From Candidatus Fermentibacterota bacterium (lineage in GTDB: Bacteria > Fermentibacterota > Fermentibacteria > Fermentibacterales > Fermentibacteraceae), in contig OY970370.1 in NCBI GenBank assembly GCA_963718745.1, positions 1,547,566 through 1,611,565 of the forward strand: DNA of 64,000 nt, in the 5' to 3' direction. Every line of letters begins with the position of its first letter. Within the stretch, counting starts at the first letter, position 1. The position numbers and the translations under genes were made by a program. Positions 16,264-42,455 of this stretch are shown here, one piece after another. The notes under the pieces are model-generated. The model was given only the letters and a program-made list of their open reading frames with translations, was not told the DNA's origin and ran no database searches.

Positions 16264-16667
16264 GCGCGTCCTCGGGCCGACCCCGTAGCACCTCGCCCCA
16301 CGCGTCAGCTGAAAAAGTACAGGGATGCGGGGTCCGCTCCGGCGGGCCCCGCATCCATCTGTGAAACGGTTGCTGGAAGCTCACCAGCCTGATCCATCGA
16401 GGTCTTCCGACCATCAATCCAGCCTGCTTGTCGCCAACTGCCCCCCGGGGCAACGCATTCCCCGCTGATCAAAGAGCGAGTATTCGATGGGAGCACCATG
16501 TCGGACGGACTCTGTGTCCCGAGTTGCTGGTTTCCTCCTGTCTGACTCCCCCGGATGTCTTCATAATCATGCTGGAAACCGATTCGGGCGCGTGGACGGC
16601 CAGGATGGTCATCCTGAGAAATGCGGCACCATGCACACGGTGCCCGAGTCCCCGGAGGGGAGGAACG

Positions 16668-18578
16668 ATGAGATACCTTCTGCTGCCGGTCATCTGCGCG
16701 CTGCCGTGCTTCTCCGCGGAGCTCCTGTTCCGCAGCCAGGAAGCAATGCCGGACGCCGAGATCCTCGCTTCGGATGCGAGCTCGGTTACCTTGTGCTTCA
16801 ACCTCCCCGCCCTCACCGGATCCGATGCTTTGGTCGACGGTTTCGGCACCGGCACCTGCCTGCGCGTGCCGGGCTGGGGAATGCTGGCCGAAGCGGGCTG
16901 CCCCGACCTGCCGGTGCTCAGGAAGCTCGTCATGGTCCCGGACATCGGGGGGGTGAGCCTCGAGGTGATGGAGGAGACCACCGCGAGCCTGGGTGTGTTC
17001 ACGATACCGCCATTCCAGCATCCACCCCTCAGATCCGGTGAGACTCAGCCGTTCGAGCAGGACCCGGCGATCTATGGTTCGGAAGGTCCTTTTCCTTCCG
17101 AGTGTGCACTGCTGGAAGGCGTTCACGTGCTGAGGGACCTCAGGGTTGCGACGGTCAGGTTCAATCCCGTGAGGTACGACCCACGGACGGGTGAGGTCAC
17201 TCTGGTGACTTCGGCCACTGTCAGGCTGACGTTCGGGGGATCAGGGGAGAACGAGTTGTCGCGAAACTTCACGGGCACCACCCCCGGTTTCCTCCCGGTG
17301 TACGAGGAGGTCCTGGGGTTCGAACCCTCGGGTCCCTTCCTCGACGGCTGCTACCTGTTCATCGGCACCGAGGAGAGCCTCGAAGCGATCGAGGCGCTGA
17401 TCGACTGGAAGAGACAGCGGGGCTACAGGGTGGAACTGGCACAGGTGCCGAACATGGGAACGACAGCCGAAGAGGTCGACGACTGGATCGAGCTTGCCTA
17501 CGCGATCTGGTCGTGCCCGCCCGAGTGGATCCTCATCGCAGGCGGCGAAGACCTCGTGCCGGTGCCGCTGTACGAGGGATTCGCATCCGACAACGTCTAC
17601 GGCGTCATCGGCACAGGGACCAGCGTGCCATCGATACATGTCGGGAGGATCACCGGGTCCATGGAGGACCTCCAGTACCAGGCCTGGAAGATCCGCAGCC
17701 ACGAGGCCGACCCGTACGAGCCGGCAGGCGTGAACTGGCTGCAGAGGACCGTGGTCATCGGCTCGAGCGACGGGCTGGATCCGCTGCACTCCTGGGAGCA
17801 TGCTCAGATCTTCATGCAGCACGGTTTGTCCGTGGATTACTACTGCGACAGCCCCGCGTACGGCGGGGCGCCTCCGGACAAGGCGGCCATCGCGGCGAAC
17901 ATCGACGAGGGAAGGACGATCGTAGACTACATCGGCCACGGGTGGAGCGAAGGCTGGGGCACCTCGGGGTTCTCCTCGACCGACGTGGCAGCCCTTTCGA
18001 ACGGCCGCATGCTCCCCTGGGTGAACTCGATAGCCTGCAGCAACGCGGAGTTCATGTACGGGTACTGCTTCGGAGAAGCCTGGATGACCGAGGGAGACAT
18101 GGTCGACCCCAGGGGCGGGCTCGGTTTCATGGGGGCGACGACGGGCAGCCCCTTCGGCCCGACGGATTCACTGGCGGAGTACACGTGGCGCGGCTACTTC
18201 GAACTCGATATCCATCACATGGGAGCGGCAGTCGACTACGGGAAGCTGAAGGTCGAGGAGTTCTACGGCGGCGGCGGCTGGGCAAACAACATGATGCACA
18301 TGGTGTTCGGATGCCCCGAGGTCGACGTCTATGGCGACACTTCCCCCATCCCCGTCCTGGCATCTGACCACAGCGGGTACATCTGGAGCGGACCGTGGCC
18401 GGTATACGTCACCTCCGAGGGCGATGGTCCCGTCGAAAACGCGATGGTGGGCGTGGTTCAGGGCGACGAACTGCTCGGAGCCGGATACACCGACAGCAAT
18501 GGCTTCCTGCAGCTGGACATCCCGGAACTGCCCTACGGATCTTCCGATGGAGGCCACCATCACTGTCACTGCTCATAA
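16668..18578 (+). CDS. peptidase C25 (gingipain-like) family protein, catalytic region
   Basis: Start MRYLLLPVICALPCFSA (signal) with GGAGGGGAGG RBS; conserved His/Cys regions (IDYIGHGWSEGWG, VNSIACSNAEF); reading frame ends abruptly at 18578. Confidence 0.8.
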   Translation: MRYLLLPVICALPCFSAELLFRSQEAMPDAEILASDASSVTLCFNLPALTGSDALVDGFGTGTCLRVPGWGMLAEAGCPDLPVLRKLVMVPDIGGVSLEVMEETTASLGVFTIPPFQHPPLRSGETQPFEQDPAIYGSEGPFPSECALLEGVHVLRDLRVATVRFNPVRYDPRTGEVTLVTSATVRLTFGGSGENELSRNFTGTTPGFLPVYEEVLGFEPSGPFLDGCYLFIGTEESLEAIEALIDWKRQRGYRVELAQVPNMGTTAEEVDDWIELAYAIWSCPPEWILIAGGEDLVPVPLYEGFASDNVYGVIGTGTSVPSIHVGRITGSMEDLQYQAWKIRSHEADPYEPAGVNWLQRTVVIGSSDGLDPLHSWEHAQIFMQHGLSVDYYCDSPAYGGAPPDKAAIAANIDEGRTIVDYIGHGWSEGWGTSGFSSTDVAALSNGRMLPWVNSIACSNAEFMYGYCFGEAWMTEGDMVDPRGGLGFMGATTGSPFGPTDSLAEYTWRGYFELDIHHMGAAVDYGKLKVEEFYGGGGWANNMMHMVFGCPEVDVYGDTSPIPVLASDHSGYIWSGPWPVYVTSEGDGPVENAMVGVVQGDELLGAGYTDSNGFLQLDIPELPYGSSDGGHHHCHCS

Positions 18579-18924
18579 CTGCAGGGCGTACACGGCTTCA
18601 CTGGACCCGGCTCCGGTGGGCTGGGAGGAAGGCGGCAGCGCGTGTCTCTTCCTCGACCCGGCCACCCCCTCTCCGTTCTCGTCCCTCACCTCGATAACCT
18701 TCGGCCTGCCGTCGGAATCCCCCTGCAATCTGTCCGTCTACGATGTCTCCGGAAGGCTGGTGCGGACGATCATCGACGCCAGCCTGCCCGGCGGCGGTCA
18801 TGCGGTCGTCTGGGACGGTACGACGGGCTCGGGTGCGAGATGCCCGGACGGAGTCTACTTCATTCGCCTGAGCATTCCGGAGGACGGGCTCACCCGGAGA
18901 GTAGTCCGGCTGGGCGGGGATTGA
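18546..18924 (+). CDS. T9SS C-terminal sorting domain, probable 3' continuation of the C25 peptidase in the +1 frame
   Basis: Frame +1 encodes ...CNLSVYDVSGRLVRTIIDASLPGGGHAVVWDGTTGSGARCPDGVYFIRLSIPEDGLTRRVVRLGGD, a classic Por-secretion C-terminal domain; implies a frameshift near 18530-18550. Confidence 0.5.
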
Positions 18925-19816: not shown

Positions 19817-20878
19817 TCAGTCGTGGTCGTGCCGGTGGTGGATGTCGGGATAGTGCTGGTGGAAATGAGTCAGCGGAGCATGGATGTGGGGATGGCTGTG
19901 CATCTCTCCGTCGGGTTCGGTGCCGTCGTGCTCATGGGCATGATGTTCGTCGTGGGCGTGAGAATGCTGATGGACGATCTCCTCGTGCGTGTGCTCGTGA
20001 CGGTGCTTTTCCCCCAGCTGCAGCCAGACTCCCAGACCCATCAGGAGCGCTGCCGGGAGCAGCAGGGGGCTTGCCTGCTCCCCTAGGAACAGCAATGAGG
20101 CAATTGCTCCTATGAAGGGCGCCGTCGAGAACAGGGCTCCGGTCCTTGCAGCACCCATGTTGCGCAGGGCCAGCACGAACAGCACCAGGCTGGCGCCATA
20201 GCCTATGAATCCCACCAGGCAGGACATGGCGACCATCGGCGCTCGCGGGACGGCCTGTCCGAGGGTCAGAGCGATCGAGACGTTCACCACGCCTGCGAAC
20301 AACCCCTTGATCCCGGCTATGAGCGCTGGATCCCCCGCCGAGATCCGGCGGGTGAGGTTGTTGTCCACGGCCCAGCAGAGGCAGGCGGCCACGATTGCCA
20401 TCCTTCCGGGCAGACCTGCATCAGTGCCACCCTCTGGTGAGATCGACAGGAAGACGGCTCCCGCGATTATTGCGAGGAGCCCGGATAAAACCTTCAGGCC
20501 GATGTTCTCCCGGAAGACCAGCCATGCCAGAAGGGCTGTCAGGATACCCTCGAGGTTCAGAAGCAGCGACGTGGTGGAGGCAGGGGTGCGCATGAGCCCC
20601 CACATGAGAAGCAGTGGCGCGAGAATTCCGCCCGACAGTACGGCGCCTGCGAGCCAGGGAAGATCAGTCCACGCGAGAGGGGTCGATTGTTTCCGACCCC
20701 TCCCGAACAGTCGACCGGCAATGATCAGCGAGCTGAGACCCAGCCCGGAGCCTAGGTATAGGAGTCCGGCCAGCATGAAGGGTGTGACATCGCCGAGAAG
20801 GGCTTTCGCCGCTGCGGTGGCCCCGCCGAAGAAAGCCGCAGCGACGAGGGCCGGAACCGGACCTTCAGCGATCCTCAA
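19817..20878 (-). CDS. EamA/DMT-family transporter with ~60-aa histidine-rich C-terminal tail
   Basis: About ten TM segments typical of EamA; tail HRHEHTHEEIVHQHSHAHDEHHAHEHDG...HSHPHIHAPLTHFHQHYPDIHHRHDHD. Confidence 0.8.
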   Translation of the reverse strand: MRIAEGPVPALVAAAFFGGATAAAKALLGDVTPFMLAGLLYLGSGLGLSSLIIAGRLFGRGRKQSTPLAWTDLPWLAGAVLSGGILAPLLLMWGLMRTPASTTSLLLNLEGILTALLAWLVFRENIGLKVLSGLLAIIAGAVFLSISPEGGTDAGLPGRMAIVAACLCWAVDNNLTRRISAGDPALIAGIKGLFAGVVNVSIALTLGQAVPRAPMVAMSCLVGFIGYGASLVLFVLALRNMGAARTGALFSTAPFIGAIASLLFLGEQASPLLLPAALLMGLGVWLQLGEKHRHEHTHEEIVHQHSHAHDEHHAHEHDGTEPDGEMHSHPHIHAPLTHFHQHYPDIHHRHDHD

Positions 20879-20884
20879 CTGAGG

Positions 20885-21505
20885 CTATCGCATCCCCCTG
20901 CAGCCGCCACCCGTGCGGCCCATACCGCGCATGCCGTCCATGCCGTTCATCCCGCCCATTCCGCAGCCACCGCGCATGTCGGCACCCATCTGATCGAGGT
21001 CGAGATCCTGCAGCTGCTCCAGCTGACCGGGCGTGAGGACCCCGTGTATGCTCACCAGGGCTTCCTCGTGGATGTTCCTGATCTCGTCGGACAGGTCGGC
21101 GGCCCGGCCTGTGAAGTCCTCGAGAGATGCCACCGAGAAGCTGCTGCTGGAGAAGAGATCGAGGAATGCCCTTGCAGGATCGGCCATCCCGGCCTCTTCG
21201 CGGGCTTCGGAGATCCTCTCCTCGAAACCGGCCATGAGATCATCGATCTCGGCCAACTGGGCATCCGAGAGATCGAGGTATCCCAGGAAGGGCATGATCA
21301 TCATCGGGCAGCCCTGCATCATGTTGCATGATCCCATGCCCATCATGCCGCCACACATGCCACCCATACCGCCCATACCAGACATCCCTGAGCCACGGTC
21401 CATGCCCATACCCATGCCGCCCATTCCGCCGCAGCCCTGTGCCCCGGCCGGGACTGCCAGAGCCAGAACAAGTGCGAGCACGAGCAACCATCTGAAGCGG
21501 TTCAT
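20885..21505 (-). CDS. periplasmic Spy/CpxP/ZraP-like protein with Met/Gly/Cys-rich termini
   Basis: Signal peptide; LTxxQ-type motifs (LDLSDAQLAEI, LTPGQLEQL); MGGMG/CGG repeats at both ends. Confidence 0.65.
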   Translation of the reverse strand: MNRFRWLLVLALVLALAVPAGAQGCGGMGGMGMGMDRGSGMSGMGGMGGMCGGMMGMGSCNMMQGCPMMIMPFLGYLDLSDAQLAEIDDLMAGFEERISEAREEAGMADPARAFLDLFSSSSFSVASLEDFTGRAADLSDEIRNIHEEALVSIHGVLTPGQLEQLQDLDLDQMGADMRGGCGMGGMNGMDGMRGMGRTGGGCRGMR

Positions 21506-21699
21506 CTCCGACTCCTCTCGAAAACCATACGACTATACCCTACCTTACAGGTATTCTATAGTGGAATCACATCTTGTGGTTCCCGACCATTTGAATCAGC
21601 AACGCAAGGTTCGTCCATATCCGCTGACAACCCGCAATCAGGGTCGCTGTATCAGTTGATGATGCCCCAGGGGGGAACAAAGCCCCCCTGGGACAAGTC

Positions 21700-21905
21700 G
21701 TGATAGCTATCTATGCATGGACGAGCCTGCGAGCACGGCGAAGGGGAGACACGGTCGTTGCCGGTTGGAACATCATTATAGCCCAGCTCATCAAGACGCG
21801 GAGTGGAGCAGGGTTGCGTAAGGGCAGCTCAGAATGCCTTCTACCCGCTCTGCTGCAAAGAAGCCTCTCCTGGCCGAGAGAAGGGTAGCCATGTCGGATT
21901 GGAGT
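21700..21905. repeat. mosaic intergenic repeat, copy D
   Basis: About 120 bp nearly identical to 25530..25640 and about 55 bp to 29545..29600; lies between the FG-GAP gene stop and the Met-rich gene; a 10-bp GC hairpin sits at 21666..21692. Confidence 0.6.
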
Positions 21906-21934: not shown

Positions 21935-23755
21935 CTACTCCACCACCACGACGCGTCTCGCGGTCTCGAACTCCCCGGCCTGCATCCTTACGAAGTAGAC
22001 GCCCGGGGGATGCTCGCCCAGTCCAACCTGCGAATAGCCGGGCTGGTATTCGATCGAACCCGTCGATTCCGCAACCCTGCCCGCGATGTCCAGAACGGTC
22101 AGAGTCACCATGGAAGGCTCGGGAATGCCGATCGTGACGAGCAGGGGCCCGGAGACGGGATTGGACACGAAGGGCATCAGCTCGAAACCGCCGGGCATCT
22201 CCGGCCCCTCCGTGCCGAGCGGGTTCCAGGAGACCGTTACGTCGAGCAGAGCGGGGCTGGCGCCGGGATCGTCCGTCGTCATCACGGACCTGTACTGGAA
22301 GTAGTTCGCTCCCTCAGGAAGCACGCCCGCGAGACTGCACGGGTCATCGAGAATGGCCGACCACGCCCCCATCTCGTCGGAATCGTCCGAAGCGCGCACC
22401 TGGAAGGAAATGTCGGTCTGGGAGGGAGAGTCTTCAGTCCATGTCAGACCTCCCCAGCCCGGATCGCCCTGCAGGTATAGGATGCTGGATTCCAGGACCG
22501 CCTCGTTCACATGGATGTCCCACCAGCGGAAGAAGTGCAGGTCCGGCTCGAAGCTGGTCCCCAGGATGTCCATCCAGCCGTCGCCGTCCACGTCACCCGG
22601 GATGATGCAGTCGGCAGTGTTGTACTCCCCGATGTCGCAGACCGTGTGCTCCTCCCAGTCCGTCCCCAGTCCGTCGGAGTTCTCGATCCAGATGTACTGT
22701 CCGCCAAGCCCCGTTGTGACCAGGATGTCGCTGTCTCCGTCCCGGTCGAGATCGCCGGACCCGAGGCCCCAGCAGCAATCGGAATAGGCTGCAACTACGT
22801 GCTTGGTCCAGTCCGAACCCGTGCCGCTCAGGTTCTCCCACCACGAGACGGCGTCCGAGTCAGTACCTGAACCGAGGACGTCGAGATCCCCGTCTCCGTC
22901 GAAATCGGCCGCATGGACGGAGAACGAGCTGTTGTAGCCGTCATCTATGGCGGCCATGGTCCAGGTCGTCCCGAGACCGTCGGTGTTCTCGAGCCAGAAC
23001 ACGCCGTACTCGGCTGAACCTGCGGCAATGATGTCCAGATCTCCGTCTCCGTCCAGATCGCCGGGATGCACACCGTGGTAGGAACTGCTGAGCCCCGTAT
23101 CGATCTCATGTTCGAGCCAGTCGGAGCCGTCCCCCTCGACGTTCTCCCACCAGTACCAGTACAGGCCGAAGACGTCTGCGCAGACGATGTCGATGTCTCC
23201 ATCCCCGTCGAAGTCCCCCGTGCACGGGGTCACTGGCATCTCTGGAGCGGCGCTGATCGAACAACCGATCCATAGAGTCCCCTGGCCGTCCACGTTCTCG
23301 AACCAGGAGACCAGGTCCTGGGCTGCGACGAAGTCGGTGTCGCCGTCGCCGTCGATGTCGCTCGCGCAGATGTATCCGCCGGTTGCAGCTGCTATAAAGT
23401 GAATCGTCCAGTCGGTGCCCGTGCCGTCGTTGTTCTCCCACCAGCAGACGGTGGAGGAGCTGCTCGCAACGACGTCCAGGTCCCCGTCGCCGTCCATGTC
23501 GGCAGCATCCAGGTATTCGGGCTCGAAGATGTCGTCGATGGTGTTCTCGTACTCTCCAGGGAGGATCCCGACCTGCCCGGCGGGAGACGACCACGACGCT
23601 CCGGCGCATTCGTAGAATTCTCCACCCCATGCCGTTACCGGCCCCTGAGTCCCGGGGCCGCCGGCCCAGTCGGTCTGGCTTTCGCTGTCGGCATGGCAGA
23701 CGGAAACTGTAATCAGAAGGGCTATGAGGAGGAAGAGTCGCTGCATCCGGACCAC
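21935..23755 (-). CDS. FG-GAP/VCBS repeat protein with T9SS C-terminal sorting domain
   Basis: Signal peptide; repeated DxDGDGDxD calcium-binding-like motifs; C-terminus TLTVLDIAGRVAE...PGVYFVRMQAGEFETARRVVVVE. Confidence 0.8.
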   Translation of the reverse strand: MVRMQRLFLLIALLITVSVCHADSESQTDWAGGPGTQGPVTAWGGEFYECAGASWSSPAGQVGILPGEYENTIDDIFEPEYLDAADMDGDGDLDVVASSSSTVCWWENNDGTGTDWTIHFIAAATGGYICASDIDGDGDTDFVAAQDLVSWFENVDGQGTLWIGCSISAAPEMPVTPCTGDFDGDGDIDIVCADVFGLYWYWWENVEGDGSDWLEHEIDTGLSSSYHGVHPGDLDGDGDLDIIAAGSAEYGVFWLENTDGLGTTWTMAAIDDGYNSSFSVHAADFDGDGDLDVLGSGTDSDAVSWWENLSGTGSDWTKHVVAAYSDCCWGLGSGDLDRDGDSDILVTTGLGGQYIWIENSDGLGTDWEEHTVCDIGEYNTADCIIPGDVDGDGWMDILGTSFEPDLHFFRWWDIHVNEAVLESSILYLQGDPGWGGLTWTEDSPSQTDISFQVRASDDSDEMGAWSAILDDPCSLAGVLPEGANYFQYRSVMTTDDPGASPALLDVTVSWNPLGTEGPEMPGGFELMPFVSNPVSGPLLVTIGIPEPSMVTLTVLDIAGRVAESTGSIEYQPGYSQVGLGEHPPGVYFVRMQAGEFETARRVVVVE

Positions 23756-24105: not shown

Positions 24106-24348
24106 ATGTCAGCGTTGAGCGCCACTGATGCAAGAGCCCGGCTGTACCGCCTCATCGACGAGGCGGCCGAGACTCATGAACCGATCCTGATAACCGGGAA
24201 GCGGAGTAACGCCATTCTCCTCTCGGAGGAGGACTGGCGTTCGATCCAGGAAACCCTGTTCCTGCTCTCGGTCCCCGGCATGCGCGAGAGCATCGTCGAG
24301 GGCATGAAGACACCGGTCGAGAAGTGCAGCGAGAAGCCCGGCTGGTGA
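24106..24348 (+). CDS. yefM: type II antitoxin, Phd/YefM family
   Basis: 80 aa; MSALSATDARARLYRLIDEAAETHEPILITGKRSNAILLSEEDWRSIQETLFLLSVPGM matches YefM; AAAGGGGA RBS. Confidence 0.85.
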   Translation: MSALSATDARARLYRLIDEAAETHEPILITGKRSNAILLSEEDWRSIQETLFLLSVPGMRESIVEGMKTPVEKCSEKPGW

Positions 24349-24608
24349 CCTGGCGCCTGGTCTACACTGCGCAGGCCCGGAAGGACGCGAAGAAGATCCA
24401 GGCAGCCAGCCTCCGGGAAAAGACGGAAGCTCTCCTCGAACTGATCGCGAAGGATCCTTGCGCCGCCCCTCCTCCCTTCGAGAGGCTCCTCGGTGACCTG
24501 AAGGGCGCGATATCCCGCAGGATCAACATCCAGCACAGACTTGTCTACCAGGTTCTCGAAGCAGAGAAGACCATCAAGGTCCTCAGGATATGGACGCACT
24601 TCGAGTAG
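24324..24608 (+). CDS. yoeB: type II toxin, YoeB/Txe family
   Basis: RLVYTAQARKDAKKI...RRINIQHRLVYQV...IWTHFE matches YoeB; the likely start is the GTG at 24345 overlapping the antitoxin stop. Confidence 0.85.
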   Translation: MQREARLVTWRLVYTAQARKDAKKIQAASLREKTEALLELIAKDPCAAPPPFERLLGDLKGAISRRINIQHRLVYQVLEAEKTIKVLRIWTHFE

Positions 24609-35936: not shown

Positions 35937-37409
35937 CTAGAGGTCATGTCCGCAGTAGGACAGGTTGAAGCTCTTGTTGCACAGGGGGAAGTCCGAGATC
36001 TGCTGCCCGCGGAGCGCGCAGGCCAGCCCGAACCAGTTCCGGAACGAGGGATCCACGACCTTGCAGCGGCTGAAACCCCCGCGGTCGTCCGTGATCAGGA
36101 CATGGCAGATCTCTCCGCGCCAGCCCTCCGCCAGGGAGACCGCCATCCCGTTCCGCGGCAGCGCGCCCGTATCGACATGGACCGGGCCGTCCGGGAGGCT
36201 TCCGAGCTGTTCCAGGATGAATGCGGCCGATCTCTGTACCTCCATCCACCGGACGAGGGCGCGGGCGAAGACGTCACCCGAATCCCAGACCGAGAGCGGG
36301 ATGTGGGACATCCGGTAGATGCCCGAAGGGAAGTCACGGCGCACGTCCTTCTCGAGCCCGCTGGCCCTGGCGGCCGGTCCGGAAAGGCCGATGGACGCCG
36401 CGAGGCCGGCGGGAACGGTCCCGGTGCCCTCGAACCGCGACAGGACGGAAGGGGTCTCCCACAGCAGGCCCACGGCCCCCTCTGCGTCCCGGAGCGCCGT
36501 CCTGAGCCTGTCCGAGAGGTCCCGCGCCGTCTCCCCGTCGATGTCCCGGGCCAGGCCTCCCGGCCGGAGCAGCCCCCGGCCGAACCTGTTGCCGCACATG
36601 CCCGCCGTTATGTTGAGGACATCCCCCCTGATCCTCCCGCAGTACGACATGGTGGGGAGGAAACCGACGTCGCCCGCCATCGCGCCCAGGTCGCCTACGT
36701 GGTTGGCCATCCTCTCCAGCTCGAGCGCCACGCCCCGGAGGACCTGCGCCCTCGCAGGGACGTCCGTTCCGCACAGAGCCTCGAATGCCGAGCAGTACGC
36801 GGTCGCATGGCCGATGGAGGTGTCTCCCGCGATCGTCTCGACGATGCGGAGCCTCCGGTAGTCCGGCCTGCCCTTCAGCGCCTCCTCGACTCCCCTGTGC
36901 TGGTATCCGAGGGCGATCTCGAGGTGATAAACCGTCTCGCCGTGGCACAGGAACCTGAAGTGGCCGGGCTCGATCACGCCCGCGTGCACGGGGCCGACGG
37001 CGACTTCGTGGATCTCCGCGCCCCTTATCCTGAAGAAGTTGTTCGTCTCCGCAGAAGGCGGGCCGGGGGGGTACCTGACCGGTTTCAACCACGGGTGCCC
37101 CCTGAACTCGATCCCGTACCCCTCGGCGGCCTCGCGCTCGAACATCTGCGCCTGCGGGCAGTCGGGCACCAGCGAGTCCATCCCGCCCGAGGGGCGGGTG
37201 GAGAATACCGAGATCTGGCCGGTGCCAGGCTTCGACATCACCGCGTACATCGTCAGGCTGTCCTGGAGCCGGCATGCGAAGAGCGCGGAAATGGCCGCCC
37301 CGCCCTGCACCGAATCCAGAACGCCCTGCCTGAACTCCGCCCTTGTGAGGAGGGGGATCTCGGCGAGCGGCACGGGTCCTCCGCCCTGGAACAGCGCTGT
37401 GCGTGTCAC
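35937..37409 (-). CDS. NuoC/NuoD-fusion large subunit (HycE-like) lacking NiFe-ligating CxxC motifs
   Basis: C-terminal 490 aa of ORF 35937..38888; GTG start overlaps the stop of the upstream gene; NuoC-like (YAVMS...ISVFSTR...FEREAAEGYGIEFRGHP) then NuoD-like domain; the L1 position reads TIAGDTSIGH and the C-terminus is NLSYCGHDL. Confidence 0.8.
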   Translation of the reverse strand: MTRTALFQGGGPVPLAEIPLLTRAEFRQGVLDSVQGGAAISALFACRLQDSLTMYAVMSKPGTGQISVFSTRPSGGMDSLVPDCPQAQMFEREAAEGYGIEFRGHPWLKPVRYPPGPPSAETNNFFRIRGAEIHEVAVGPVHAGVIEPGHFRFLCHGETVYHLEIALGYQHRGVEEALKGRPDYRRLRIVETIAGDTSIGHATAYCSAFEALCGTDVPARAQVLRGVALELERMANHVGDLGAMAGDVGFLPTMSYCGRIRGDVLNITAGMCGNRFGRGLLRPGGLARDIDGETARDLSDRLRTALRDAEGAVGLLWETPSVLSRFEGTGTVPAGLAASIGLSGPAARASGLEKDVRRDFPSGIYRMSHIPLSVWDSGDVFARALVRWMEVQRSAAFILEQLGSLPDGPVHVDTGALPRNGMAVSLAEGWRGEICHVLITDDRGGFSRCKVVDPSFRNWFGLACALRGQQISDFPLCNKSFNLSYCGHDL

Positions 37410-38888
37410 GGCAGCACCTCGATCACGGACGCGGCGGAGGCCAGGGCTTCCCTGAGGAATGGCGGCATCCATATCCCGAGGACGAGCAGGACTATCATGG
37501 GCACTGCGACTAGCAGCAGGTCGGGTAGCGTCGTGACGGCCTTCAGTGCGGGCCGTTCGGGCGGCATCCATGCCATCGGGATGGCGTGCCGGAGGATCCC
37601 GATGAAGGCGATCGAGACGCCGGCGAGGAAGAGGATCGCCACGAACACGGCGCCCGAGTCGAATGCCGTGCGGAGGATCATGAACTCGGTGAGGAAGATC
37701 GCGAACGGGGCTGTCCCCGTCAGGGCGAGGAGCGAAGCCAGCAGGCCCGCGCCCCACACCGGGGCGGACGAGAGGGTGCCGCGGATCCTGCGCATGTCGT
37801 TGGACCCGCTGATCGCGATGAGCCTCCCGGCTGACAGGAATGCGGTGCTCTTGGCAAGGGAGTGGGACAGGGCGTGCAACATCGCCGCGAGGGCTCCCGC
37901 TCCACCGAGACCGGCGCCGAGCGCGATTATCCCGATGTGCTCGAGGCTGGAGTACGCGAGCAGCCGCTTCAGATCCCTCTGCACCACGATGAAGGCCGCC
38001 GCTGTGAGTATCGAGGCGAGACCCGCCGCGATCAGGATGCTCCTGCCCCAGCCATGGCCGCCTGTCGCCGCCTCCACTATCGGGAGGCAGCGGAAGATGC
38101 AGTACAGGGCTGCGTTCAGGAGGAAGCCCGAGAACACGGCCGAAACGGGGGCGGGCGCCTGGCTGTGCGCGTCGGGCAGCCAGTTGTGCATCGGCGCGAG
38201 CCCCGCTTTCGTCCCGTAGCCCACGACCATGAAGATGAAACCCGCCTTGAGGAGGGTGACGTCCAGGCCGGATGCTGATGCGGCCAGGCTCGTCCAGAGA
38301 AGGGACTCGGTCCCGCGAAGCGAAGTAGGACCCGCCGAAGCCGCGAAGAGGAGGGTGCCTGTGAAGGCCAGGGCGACACCCACGGAGCACATCAGCAGAT
38401 ACTTCCACATGGCCTCGAGGGAGCCCGGCGTGGTGTGAACGCATATCAGGAAAGCGCTCAGGAGCGTCGTCGCCTCTATCCCGACCCACATCACCCCGAG
38501 GTTGTTGGACAGGAGAACGACGAGCATCGCGAAGAGCGAGCCGAACCAGAGCCCCCCGAATCGGCGGGCGGACCGGATGTCGAAAGAGCCGGCGGCGAGT
38601 CTCGTTCTCGAAGTAGCCGGGGGCCTGCAGCGCAGCGAGCGTGAATACGACGCCCATTATCAGGAGATGGAAGGCCGAGAGTGCGTCCAGCCTCAGCCAG
38701 CCGCCCGGTACCGTGACCGGGCCGCCTCCCAGCACAACGAATGCCGCCGCGCCCATGAGGATGCACGTGAAGACCGTGCCCAGGGCGCACAGGCGGAGCG
38801 CCGACCGGGGCGTGCCGGAGAACAGGCTCGCCGCGGCAAGCAGCACGGGAAGGGCCAGCATCGCGGTGATCATCAGGGTCGCCGTCAT
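37406..38888 (-). CDS. HyfF/NuoN-like antiporter-type membrane subunit, frame-disrupted near 38560-38600
   Basis: N-terminal ~96 aa in the frame of ORF 35937..38888 and the remaining 373 aa in ORF 37406..38527; both parts are NuoL/M/N-family TM sequence. Confidence 0.7.
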
Positions 38889-38891
38889 GCG

Positions 38892-39536
38892 TCAGCCCCT
38901 CAGCCTGGAGAGGCGGTCGGAGTCTATGTGGTCGAACTCCGAGTTGATCCTGTAGATGGCTATGCCCATCACGAACACGGCCACGAACATGTCCATCAGG
39001 ACGCCGATCTCCACGAGGAAGGGGACGTCCCTGACGAGTGCCAGGCTGAACGCGTAGATGCCGTTCTCGAGGACCAGGTAGCCCAGGACCTGGTTGACTG
39101 CGGTCCGCCTTGCGACAAGCAGGAAGAGCCCCGTGGACATGAGCGTGAACGAGACTGGGACCATCATGGCGGCGGATGACTGCCGGGGCAGGTCCAGCCT
39201 CCCGTCCAGCCAGAAGGAGGCGGAGAGGGCCAGGACGCCTATCAGGAGAGACGGCACGTACCCGACGAAAGGCTTGACCTCGCGGCTGGTCGCGGACTCC
39301 CTCAGGGCCTTCCTCAGCAGGTTCGGGAACACGAAGCCCTTGAGGGCGAAAACGGCAAGGCCGAGAACCGCTATCCTTATCGAAAGGCCGTCCTCCGCGG
39401 TCACGACGGGCAGCAGGCCGACCAGCATCCCCTGCCAGGCTGCGGTCCTTATGCAGTTCCCGAGCCTGCTCGAGCCGAGCAGCACGAAGTTGGAGAGCAT
39501 GAGGCCCACGAGCACGAGGTCCATCCAGGCCGTCAC
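38892..39536 (-). CDS. HyfE-like small membrane subunit
   Basis: 214-aa polytopic membrane protein in operon position and size matching hydrogenase-4 component E. Confidence 0.7.
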   Translation of the reverse strand: MTAWMDLVLVGLMLSNFVLLGSSRLGNCIRTAAWQGMLVGLLPVVTAEDGLSIRIAVLGLAVFALKGFVFPNLLRKALRESATSREVKPFVGYVPSLLIGVLALSASFWLDGRLDLPRQSSAAMMVPVSFTLMSTGLFLLVARRTAVNQVLGYLVLENGIYAFSLALVRDVPFLVEIGVLMDMFVAVFVMGIAIYRINSEFDHIDSDRLSRLRG

Positions 39537-40453
39537 GGTATGAACCTCGATGCCAGGATGAAGGCGAGTACCGACAGCGCGCCCGCCGCCGCGAGGAGCT
39601 GGGGTGCCCTGGTCAGGCTCAGCCTAGCCATCACTGATTCGGCGACGCCGACGAGAACCCCTGTCAGGAGCATGACACCCAGGAAGGCGGCGAGGTATGG
39701 ATATCCCCCGAGCCCGAAGGGGGAGAGGAGCAGGCCTGCGAACAGGGAGCCGAAGAGCCAGAGCTTGAGCGAGGCGCCGTATGTCACCAGGGCGAAGTCC
39801 GGGCCTGAGCTGTCGAGGACCATCACCTCGTGGACCATCGTCAGTTCAAGGTGGGTGTCGGGGTCGTCGAAGGGGATCCTCGAGTTCTCGGCGAGCAGGA
39901 TTATGAAGAACGACACCGCCACCAGCGCGGGAGCGGTTTCCGCGGAGATCCAGCCTGCGCTCCCCAGGCCCGCGAACATGCCCGGGAGGGAAGCGGAGCC
40001 CGAAATCCTCGACAGCGCCGCGAGACCGGTCAGCAGGGCCGGTTCCGCCAGGGCCGAATAGAGTACCTCCCGGCTCGCGCCCATCCCCTCGAAGCTGGAG
40101 CCGCAGTCCAGTGCCGCTGCGACAGTGAAGAACCTTGACAGACCGAGGATGTACGCGAAGAAGATCATGTCTCCCGCGAATCCCCAGCCGGGCTGGTTCC
40201 CGGCGGGCGCAAGGATCACGAGCGAGGCGAGGACGCATGCTATCGAAAGAGACGGGGCGAGCTTGAAGATCCATGTCGATGTGGAACTGAAGACGGCGCC
40301 CTTCCGCAGCAGCTTGGAGATGTCGCGGTACTGCTGGAGGAGGGGCGCGCCCCTCCTTCCGGCGAAGACGGCCTTGGTCCTGTTCACGACCCCTGCGAGC
40401 AGGGGGGCCAGCAGGAGCCCCGCGAAGACGAACAGCAGACCCTCGGTGCTCAT
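39533..40453 (-). CDS. HyfC/HycD/NuoH-like membrane subunit
   Basis: 306-aa polytopic protein with NuoH-like conserved acidic/aromatic loops; 4-nt overlap with the next gene. Confidence 0.8.
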   Translation of the reverse strand: MSTEGLLFVFAGLLLAPLLAGVVNRTKAVFAGRRGAPLLQQYRDISKLLRKGAVFSSTSTWIFKLAPSLSIACVLASLVILAPAGNQPGWGFAGDMIFFAYILGLSRFFTVAAALDCGSSFEGMGASREVLYSALAEPALLTGLAALSRISGSASLPGMFAGLGSAGWISAETAPALVAVSFFIILLAENSRIPFDDPDTHLELTMVHEVMVLDSSGPDFALVTYGASLKLWLFGSLFAGLLLSPFGLGGYPYLAAFLGVMLLTGVLVGVAESVMARLSLTRAPQLLAAAGALSVLAFILASRFIP

Positions 40454-40466
40454 CGCCGCGCCCCCG

Positions 40467-42455
40467 TCAGAGCTTCCACGCCAGCAGTGCGAAGAGCGCC
40501 GCGACGATGTAGAGGATGTAGAGGTTCACCCTGCCGTGCTGTATCACCCTGAATCGGGAGAAGACGCGCTCCAGGGCGGAGAAGACGGGTCTGTACAGCC
40601 CGTCCTGATAGACATCCGGCGTCTCGGTGGAGAAGGAGGATTCCGCCGGGAACAGGCCGTCCGGTTCCACGAAGCTCCTGCGCCTCCGGAGGATTCCTCC
40701 GAAGAGGCGGACGATCGGCTCGGCGAATGACGACGCAGTGTACTGCATCGACGGGGCGGGCGACCGGAATCCGCAGCCCCAGGTGGGCGCGACGGCAGTT
40801 GTGCGCCTCCTGAGGATTGCCGTCCTCGCCCAGTAGATCGCCGCCGATGCCAGTATCAGGGCGCCCGAGAAGAGTGCGGCCGCCGTCAGGGCATCTCCGG
40901 GCTGCCCCGCCGGTCCGGCGGCGCTGCCGAAGCCCGTGACGAGCCCGGACACGACGGGGCGCAGGAAACCCGCCATGAAGCGGCCCGAGAGGCCGAGCAG
41001 CAGGCAGAGAGAAGCGAGGACCGTCATCGGGAGCCGCATCGAAAGAGGGGTTTCCCCGGCTCTCGACGCGCAGGCGCTGCGCGGCTCCCCGAGGAAGACT
41101 ATGCCGAAGGCCTTCGTGAAGCAGGCCAGGGCGAGGCCGCCCGTCAGGGCCAGGCCGCCCGCGGCCAGCAGGCCGGCCGTGGCACCTGCATGCGAGGAGG
41201 CTGCCGCCTGTGTGATGCCGGAGAATGCGGACAGGTAGACGAGCAGCTCGCTCGCGAATCCGTTGAAGGGCGGCAGCCCGCAGATCGCTATGCTGCCCGC
41301 GAGGAAGCAGATGCCCGTGACCGGCATCGTCCTGAGAAGGCCTCCGAGGTGGTCCAGCTCGCGGGTGCCGGTCTGCTTCAGCACCGCTCCGGCCCCCATG
41401 AACAGGAGGCTCTTGAACAGGGCGTGGTTTATGACGTGGAAGAGGCCTCCCGCGAAGCCGAGGAAGGCCATTGCAGGTATGTCGTAGCTGATCCCGAGGA
41501 AGCCTAGCCCGAGGCCCATCCCGATGATCCCGATGTTCTCCACGCTGTGGTAGGCGAGAAGGCGCTTGAGATCGTGCTGTGCGATGGCCGAGAGCACGCC
41601 GACCAGCGCCGAGACCATGCCGGACAGCAGGAGCACCCATCCCCACCAGGGAGGCGGGGGGCCCAGGAACAGGAGGAAGCGGAGGAGCCCGTATATCCCT
41701 GTCTTGATCATCACGCCGCTCATCACCGCGGACACTCCCGAGGGGGCCGAGGGATGCGCCTCGGGGAGCCAGACATGGAGGGGGACGAATCCCGCCTTGG
41801 TGCCGAAGCCTGCGAAGGCCAGCACGAACGCGACTCCTGCGGGACCCCCCGCCGGCAGGGCGAGCCTAGAGAAATCCAGCGAACCGCCACGGCCCAGGAT
41901 GGCGAACAGAGCAAGCAGGCAGGCTGTGCCGAGGTGTGTGGCTACGAGGTAGATCCAGCCGGATCTCCGGACATCGCCCTCGACGGCGTCGTGCATGACC
42001 AGGAAGAAAGACGCGATGGCCATGACCTCCCAGCCGAGGAGGAACAGGAGCGCGTTCCTGGAGACGGTGACGAGCAGCATCCCGAAGGCGAGCAGGTTGA
42101 AGAATCCCCAGTAACCGGCCCGGTGCCTGCCCGTCCCCGCCGGGCGCCCGAGGTATCCGATGCTGTAGACGGCCGCAAGGGACGAGACCAGCAGGATGGG
42201 GATCGTGAACAGGGCGGACAGAGGATCCATGCCCAGGACCAGCCCGCCCGACGGCATGTCCCAGGGGATGACCGAGGATTCTACCGGGCCATCGAAGAAT
42301 GCGAGGATGGCGGCGGCGATGCCCGGGAGGCTGCCTGCCACGGCCGCGATCGGACCTGCCGTCCTCGAGGCTCCGAACCTGTCGGGGATGGCGAAGGAGA
42401 CCAGAGCCCCGGCCAGGAATGTGCAGAGTGACGCGACTAGCAGTCCGATGATCAT
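40467..42455 (-). CDS. HyfB/HycC/NuoL-like antiporter-type membrane subunit
   Basis: 662 aa; conserved NuoL-family segments (LGWEVMAIASFFLV, FGTKAGFVPLHVWLPEAHPSAPS, HALFKSLLFMGAGAV). Confidence 0.85.
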   Translation of the reverse strand: MIIGLLVASLCTFLAGALVSFAIPDRFGASRTAGPIAAVAGSLPGIAAAILAFFDGPVESSVIPWDMPSGGLVLGMDPLSALFTIPILLVSSLAAVYSIGYLGRPAGTGRHRAGYWGFFNLLAFGMLLVTVSRNALLFLLGWEVMAIASFFLVMHDAVEGDVRRSGWIYLVATHLGTACLLALFAILGRGGSLDFSRLALPAGGPAGVAFVLAFAGFGTKAGFVPLHVWLPEAHPSAPSGVSAVMSGVMIKTGIYGLLRFLLFLGPPPPWWGWVLLLSGMVSALVGVLSAIAQHDLKRLLAYHSVENIGIIGMGLGLGFLGISYDIPAMAFLGFAGGLFHVINHALFKSLLFMGAGAVLKQTGTRELDHLGGLLRTMPVTGICFLAGSIAICGLPPFNGFASELLVYLSAFSGITQAAASSHAGATAGLLAAGGLALTGGLALACFTKAFGIVFLGEPRSACASRAGETPLSMRLPMTVLASLCLLLGLSGRFMAGFLRPVVSGLVTGFGSAAGPAGQPGDALTAAALFSGALILASAAIYWARTAILRRRTTAVAPTWGCGFRSPAPSMQYTASSFAEPIVRLFGGILRRRRSFVEPDGLFPAESSFSTETPDVYQDGLYRPVFSALERVFSRFRVIQHGRVNLYILYIVAALFALLAWKL

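Follow-up and report, generated by a model that had tools for sequence, protein, structure and literature searches.

A CnrT-family transporter gene coupled to a gene for a secreted Spy/ZraP-like protein: a candidate metal efflux operon in a Fermentibacteria-like bacterium

Two adjacent genes on the minus strand of a 64,000-nucleotide stretch of a Candidatus Fermentibacterota genome (contig OY970370.1; the whole stretch is called the window here) probably constitute a bicistronic operon for efflux of cytoplasmic nickel or cobalt, and perhaps zinc, together with capture or chaperoning of metal in the periplasm, as judged by comparison with characterized relatives. The upstream gene (gene 1) encodes a small secreted protein, and the downstream gene (gene 2) a homolog of the nickel exporter CnrT that carries a histidine-rich tail. 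The two co-directional open reading frames (ORFs) occupy the coordinates at which a preliminary description, made from the sequence alone, had proposed a two-gene metal-handling module, and the TTG start of gene 2 lies 6 nucleotides (nt) past the stop of gene 1.

20885-21505, minus strand: gene 1, 206 amino acids (aa), ATG start; secreted protein predicted to belong to the Spy/CpxP/ZraP/CnrX superfamily
19817-20878, minus strand: gene 2, 353 aa, TTG start; CnrT-family DMT/EamA transporter by homology

The transporter and its histidine-rich tail

Gene 2 matched the EamA domain (PF00892) in two stretches with 97.3 bits against a cut-off of 28.2, and its AlphaFold2 model, built on a 56-sequence alignment, contained ten transmembrane helices (predicted local distance difference test score, pLDDT, 87.8). 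In Foldseek the membrane part showed the DMT fold, matching YddG, LicB, SLC35 and TPT with E-values near 1e-7 (1.6e-7 for LicB and YddG). By BLASTP the protein was 44% identical over its full length to CnrT of plasmid pMOL28 (L084:20398-21450; E 4e-75). CnrT (Rmet_6211, Q9L3G0; DMT superfamily, TC 2.A.7) is of similar length, 351 aa, and has in common with gene 2 the ten-helix architecture with two EamA domains, the motif WAVDNNLTR and a tail of two histidine repeats. On its sequence, gene 2 is a member of the known CnrT family and not an undescribed transporter type.

The literature describes CnrT as an inner-membrane protein of the DMT family that exports cytoplasmic Ni(II), and cnrT as the last gene of cnrYXHCBAT on plasmid pMOL28 of Cupriavidus metallidurans CH34 (PMC6851896, PMC11647595, PMC7019866). 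Within the family, Ni(II) export from the cytoplasm is known for CnrT only (PMC6851896, PMC11647595). Gene 2 differs in its setting, as it is not located behind an RND pump of the cnrCBA type and is not accompanied by CnrY, CnrX or CnrH; no RND pump or ECF genes were found among the neighbors of the pair in the window. Instead, it is coupled to a secreted LTXXQ protein, and its host is Fermentibacteria-like and anaerobic, not a betaproteobacterium.

The family is widespread. A database search with gene 2 returned at least about 8000 matches from Betaproteobacteria, Planctomycetes and many other groups, most of them 350-357 aa in length with 55-60% identity. Among species-representative genomes, a scan for the motifs WA[VIL]DNNLTR and PD[IL]HHRHxH found at least 600 stretches, of which at least 529 loci were confirmed as relatives, the matches listed being mainly proteobacterial. 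A literature search on EamA transporters with a histidine-rich part found nothing relevant, and a fold search of the PDB found no solved CnrT-type structure. In the public NCBI/ENA gene call (P0001), gene 2 is a 319-aa protein that starts at an internal Met, which removes the first transmembrane helix. The spacing of the TTG start is kept in seven paired loci, and the N-terminal residues that it adds, in the first transmembrane helix (TM1), are conserved family-wide; both observations argue against the internal start.

The C-terminal tail has the following features.

19820-20011, minus strand: histidine-rich C-terminal domain, residues 290-353, predicted to be cytoplasmic; 23 His in 64 residues (36%)
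19928-20005, minus strand: His repeat 1, residues 292-317 (HRHEHTHEEIVHQHSHAHDEHHAHEH), modelled as a beta-hairpin
19823-19900, minus strand: His repeat 2, residues 327-352 (HSHPHIHAPLTHFHQHYPDIHHRHDH), identical to repeat 1 at 12 of 26 residues

The preliminary description gave a tail of about 60 residues with more than 40% histidine; the length and the richness in histidine were right, while the percentage was overstated. Within the tail a 26-residue unit is duplicated, with the histidines in register between the repeats, and the predicted cytoplasmic location of the tail follows from the ten helices together with a TM2-TM3 loop carrying four positive charges. An alignment that began with 12 sequences and grew to 56 (A5, from which CnrT itself is absent) showed 22 tail histidines to be invariant across these diverse family members from several phyla, the window protein included. 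This invariance argues for a conserved domain rather than chance composition or low-complexity filler, and against the lineage-specific linker that had been considered in the preliminary description. The family motif HxHxHxH...HDEHHxHxH ... HYPDxHHRHxH is present in both CnrT and gene 2; the CnrT tail reads ...HDEHHQHEH...HPHYPDVHHRHSH, and the pattern HYPD[IV]HHRH.H is common to the two. AlphaFold2 modelled the tail of gene 2 as four strands in two hairpins (model residues 291-297, 300-306, 326-332 and 335-341, plus one for protein numbering; pLDDT 61-79). Since residues of a beta-strand alternate between its faces, the HxHxHxH pattern should place the histidine side chains on one face of the strand.

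We surveyed 80 CnrT-family loci from other lineages for neighbors within 3.5 kb of the transporter gene, with identities confirmed by Pfam.

AcrB-type RND pump: 12 of 80 loci, mostly upstream and on the same strand, as in cnrCBAT
CDF transporter: 7 of 80 loci
HupE/UreJ_2 protein: 7 of 80 loci
Chromate transporter (ChrA): 6 of 80 loci
MerR-family regulator: 5 of 80 loci

At least one gene of these five kinds was present at 25 of the 80 loci. A close relative (L096, 64% identical) lies downstream of CusB-like, AcrB-like and MOSC-like genes, an arrangement as in cnrCBAT, and together these neighborhoods support a metal role for the whole family. With the homology to CnrT, they make the metal-handling role suggested in the preliminary description likely.

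The secreted partner protein

Gene 1 is divided into a putative signal peptide, a helical core and two flanks of biased composition.

21440-21505, minus strand: signal peptide, residues 1-22, MNRFRWLLVLALVLALAVPAGA followed by QG, with the cleavage site between AGA and QG, read by eye
21290-21439, minus strand: N-terminal Gly/Met/Cys-rich flank, residues 23-72; 19 Gly, 16 Met and Cys25, Cys51, Cys60 and Cys66 in 50 residues
20996-21289, minus strand: helical LTXXQ core, residues 73-170; LSDAQ at 79 and LTPGQ at 157
20888-20995, minus strand: C-terminal Gly/Met/Cys-rich flank, residues 171-206; 14 Gly, 8 Met, Cys181 and Cys202 in 36 residues, ending in GGGCRGMR

The AlphaFold2 model, which lacks Met1 (add one for protein numbering), has a helix at residues 2-16, a helical core with pLDDT of about 90 and flanks with pLDDT below 50, which are predicted to be disordered. 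Matches of gene 1 to the Pfam families PF13801 (Metal_resist, 24.4 bits; curated cut-off 29.2) and PF07813 (LTXXQ, 21.4 bits; curated cut-off 24.3) were below threshold, and among its nine homologs at E ≤0.1, seven matched PF07813 and six PF13801. The best sequence match in the PDB was Spy (3o39/3oeo; E 0.18 from the single sequence, 0.04 from a profile), in an alignment that spans the whole core and places both LTXXQ-like motifs against those of Spy. Most of the top 30 Foldseek matches were Spy, STV (Salmonella), CnrXs, NccX, CpxP or ZraP, with probabilities up to 0.99, target TM-scores of 0.5-0.75 and weak E-values (≥0.12). By its model, gene 1 has the Spy/CpxP/CnrX/ZraP fold, and the Spy/CpxP/ZraP-like secreted protein named in the preliminary description is upheld, although at sub-threshold Pfam scores. 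A HMMER search with the core against 1.84 billion representative proteins found only 47 proteins at E ≤1e-3. The 28 of these that were read are secreted and 137-208 aa long, most with Gly/Met/Pro-rich flanks of variable Cys and His content. The core defines a small subfamily.

Among characterized proteins, ZraP (E. coli b4002; Salmonella STM4172, PDB 3LAY) is a zinc-binding periplasmic chaperone and a repressor of ZraSR. Like gene 1, it is a small secreted helical protein of the LTXXQ superfamily; the E. coli mature form begins HGGHGMW and ends GAGMGMGYGGCGGGGHMGMGHW, a Gly/Met/Cys-rich terminus analogous to the C-terminus of gene 1, and the model of gene 1 matches the 3LAY fold with a target TM-score of 0.71-0.75. 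ZraP thus already provides an example of a periplasmic protein in which Gly/Met/Cys-rich ends are combined with a helical LTXXQ core. The two proteins differ in that gene 1 has two LTXXQ-like motifs where the ZraP sequence has one (LTSEQ), and in that it carries flanks at both ends with six Cys and no His. Gene 1 could not be assigned to ZraP by sequence: hhalign aligned only 16 residues of the Gly/Met tail (probability 7%) with no similarity in the core, and neither NCBIfam nor the PDB sequence search returned a ZraP match.

Two further relatives by fold are the E. coli proteins Spy, an ATP-independent chaperone of the periplasm, and CpxP, a modulator of Cpx; of these, Spy is the best match of gene 1 in both sequence and fold (Foldseek probability 0.98). 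Gene 1 was rejected as a Spy equivalog, at 13.8 bits against a cut-off of 174 for NCBIfam NF007769, and the aligned Spy segments show no Gly/Met/Cys-rich flank. To our knowledge, full-length Spy and CpxP have no such flanks, and we know of neither being paired with a transporter.

CnrX and NccX, the periplasmic nickel/cobalt sensors of the cnr and ncc systems, share the fold superfamily of gene 1 (Foldseek probability up to 0.91), and CnrX is encoded in one cluster with a CnrT-type exporter. CnrX binds nickel via a His3-Glu-Met site, and no residues of gene 1 could be aligned to it. CnrX itself scores 91 bits on PF13801, and gene 1 was not accepted as a CnrX (BLASTP E 6.0; hhalign probability 0.07%; no cnrY or cnrH nearby). 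CnrX is membrane-anchored (PMC6851896), whereas the N-terminus of gene 1 reads as a cleavable signal peptide of a soluble, secreted protein. The cnr cluster already joins a PF13801 periplasmic protein with CnrT; what appears to be undescribed is only that, in one uncultured lineage, a secreted Cys/Met-rich protein resembling Spy and ZraP is coupled directly, in a bicistronic unit, to an exporter of the CnrT type. The operon type proposed as new in the preliminary description holds to that extent, as its transporter belongs to a known family.

The composition of the flanks bears on which metal is handled. The preliminary description read their methionine-rich motifs as typical of copper or silver binding, and in a module of that kind the Met/Cys-rich periplasmic protein would bind Cu(I) or Ag(I) like CusF, CopK or Met-rich multicopper oxidases and the transporter would export Cu(I). 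Consistent with this, His is absent from the two flanks, which together have 24 Met and 6 Cys, and Cus-like systems precede some members of the family: the CusB-type adaptor at L096 has an HMBD domain, and a CusF-like Met-rich ORF is located upstream at L046. However, the only characterized family member, CnrT, is a nickel exporter, and a tail of 23 His with Asp and Glu favors nickel, cobalt or zinc over Cu(I). The other metal-related neighbors of the family (CDF, HupE/UreJ, MerR and ChrA) are not copper-specific, and the RND pumps were not sub-typed. Furthermore, Gly/Met-rich flanks run through the wider subfamily of the partner with variable Cys and His, and may not indicate a specific metal. 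We consider a copper or silver module unlikely.

Conservation of the gene pair

A word-indexed search found only nine homologs of the partner. It is directly upstream of a CnrT homolog in seven contigs (the window, L001, L002, L086, L087, L088 and L095; L002 and L085 are the same contig), whose flanking genes differ where visible. In all seven, the transporter ORF has a TTG start codon 3-6 nt past the partner stop, which argues for translational coupling, and the two-gene module of the preliminary description is confirmed in this respect. The six Cys positions recur throughout the paired clade, and the Gly/Met flanks are found again in homologs of the partner. One organism is an exception, with both genes about 1.1 kb apart and in reversed order (L091 and L089). 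In L001 (5870-6010), the signal peptide of the partner and the called 173-aa ORF are in different frames, probably through an indel error of long-read assembly.

Conservation was sampled from genome fragments, and within these only relatives of Candidatus Fermentibacter have the pairing. The glutamyl-tRNA synthetase of the window shares 79-80% identity with its counterpart in Candidatus Fermentibacter daniensis and related contigs carry Por_Secre_tail proteins, thus the host is placed as a Fermentibacteria-like member of the FCB group. The co-occurrence that was to be checked according to the preliminary description is therefore real, as adjacency in seven contigs, but restricted to one lineage: the partner was found at none of the 80 CnrT loci of other lineages by tblastn, a hidden Markov model of the core, an LTxxQ motif scan or a scan for Met/His-rich ORFs, and only L001 and L002 scored in that search.

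This restriction is one of several points that weigh against a dedicated module of nickel or cobalt efflux and periplasmic capture. More distant members of the partner subfamily (L090, L099 and L100) stand alone with no EamA neighbor. In L098 (3563-4000), all that is left of the partner before an intact CnrT homolog is a signal peptide and AQDCGAMRGMGM, a natural loss which makes the partner dispensable. No metal regulator or other metal gene adjoins the pair in the window. The flanks of the partner are without His, and Met/Cys chemistry would favor Cu(I), Ag(I), Cd or Zn over nickel and cobalt. The placement of gene 1 in its superfamily is itself affected by the Pfam scores under the curated cut-offs and the Foldseek E-values given above.

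The dispensable partner also fits an arrangement with no shared metal function, in which gene 1 would encode a Spy-like chaperone acting generally in the envelope and carrying low-complexity linkers, gene 2 would encode an exporter of an organic metabolite, and the two would merely be co-transcribed. Most characterized DMT/EamA transporters carry organic substrates, and the NCBIfam matches of gene 2 are amino-acid exporters, all of them far under their cut-offs. Such an arrangement is nevertheless very unlikely given the full-length homology to CnrT, which includes the His domain, the invariant tail histidines, the metal-resistance genes near the family in 25 of 80 genomes and the tight coupling kept in seven loci.

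Genomic surroundings and proposed function

Two further elements were identified upstream of gene 1 in the window.

21663-21695, minus strand: GC-rich hairpin with a T-run, terminator-like; 13-nt arms, 92% complementary
21527-21567, strand not applicable: imperfect 19-nt palindrome, 74% complementary, with a 3-nt spacer, 22-62 nt upstream of the gene 1 ATG

The hairpin is terminator-like for the preceding FG-GAP gene (21935-23755) and sets the upstream boundary of the module. The genes around the pair are unrelated, encoding a peptidase C25, the FG-GAP protein and a YefM/YoeB toxin-antitoxin, and with the hairpin closing the FG-GAP gene they indicate that the pair is a stand-alone unit. The palindrome may be a candidate operator or promoter element. 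It was rejected as a conserved operator, since it is not kept in L001 or L002. A scan for the sigma-70 consensus found none upstream of gene 1, and an Rfam scan found three tRNAs in the window and nothing inside the module.

Fold relatives of gene 1 act in signaling, and the partner could in principle be mainly a periplasmic modulator or sensor that controls expression of the exporter, as ZraP does with ZraSR, CpxP with CpxA and CnrX with CnrYH. In L002 (732-2099), a sigma-54-dependent response regulator is encoded divergently upstream of the pair, with the sequence cut off beside it, and in L098 (212-3562) a regulator of the same type is divergent upstream of the partner remnant and the transporter, with a HAMP/PAS histidine kinase called beside it. 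This layout is reminiscent of zraP-zraSR, but it was seen only in these two contigs, which count as one observation because they are syntenic. No two-component system or ECF sigma factor adjoins the pair in the window, L001 or L095. In a further difference from ZraP, the window has neither an adjoining zraSR nor a sigma-54 promoter upstream of gene 1: no match with two or fewer mismatches was found near 21506-21700, and window-wide counts were below chance. A role chiefly in signaling is improbable on this evidence.

Other features of the window were recorded as well. A gingipain-like peptidase C25 ORF (16428-18578) overlaps an ORF in another frame (18331-18924) with a C-terminal end that looks, by eye, like a secretion-sorting domain; the overlap of the two points to a frameshift in the region 16428-18924, which may be genuine or due to sequencing error. 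The toxin-antitoxin pair at 24106-24608 consists of overlapping genes for a Phd/YefM antitoxin and a YoeB/ParE-type toxin. At 35937-42455, a 983-aa ORF with a NuoD-like C-terminal half lies near a hydrogenase-4 subunit B or Mrp-like membrane subunit, in what looks like an energy-converting hydrogenase-type complex. If this is a [NiFe] enzyme, the same genome region would encode a nickel-dependent enzyme.

Efflux combined with periplasmic capture is the probable function of the pair. The analysis establishes the structure of the two genes, their homologies and folds, and their conserved, closely spaced adjacency; which metal is moved and in which direction, whether flanks and tail bind it and whether the two proteins touch are parts of a mechanism that we infer, as follows. 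Gene 2 would export a divalent transition metal out of the cytoplasm and into the periplasm, with Ni(II) or Co(II) most probable by homology and Zn(II) possible. The double His repeat in the cytoplasm may capture or sense the metal and so feed or gate the transporter. In the periplasm, the Gly/Met/Cys-rich ends of gene 1 may bind the exported metal, protect envelope proteins from metal-induced misfolding, or both, such that gene 1 would take the place held by the CnrCBA pump in the cnr system. As a tentative and rather doubtful extension, the secreted LTXXQ protein with its six Cys and many Met could be a dedicated periplasmic acceptor for the CnrT-type exporter, like a metallothionein and a chaperone in one, that sequesters the exiting metal; the two proteins would then replace the RND pump of cnr and czc by an export-and-sequester system in Fermentibacteria-like anaerobes.

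For annotation, the name CnrT-like metal exporter can be given to genes labelled as EamA/DMT family transporters that encode this His tail. A functional pairing would be a minimal way, in an uncultured anaerobic phylum common in digesters, of both exporting and buffering transition metals. The pair would also offer a handle on two poorly understood points: what the Gly/Met/Cys-rich ends do in ZraP-like proteins, and what part is played by the strictly conserved double His repeat of the widespread and barely studied CnrT family.

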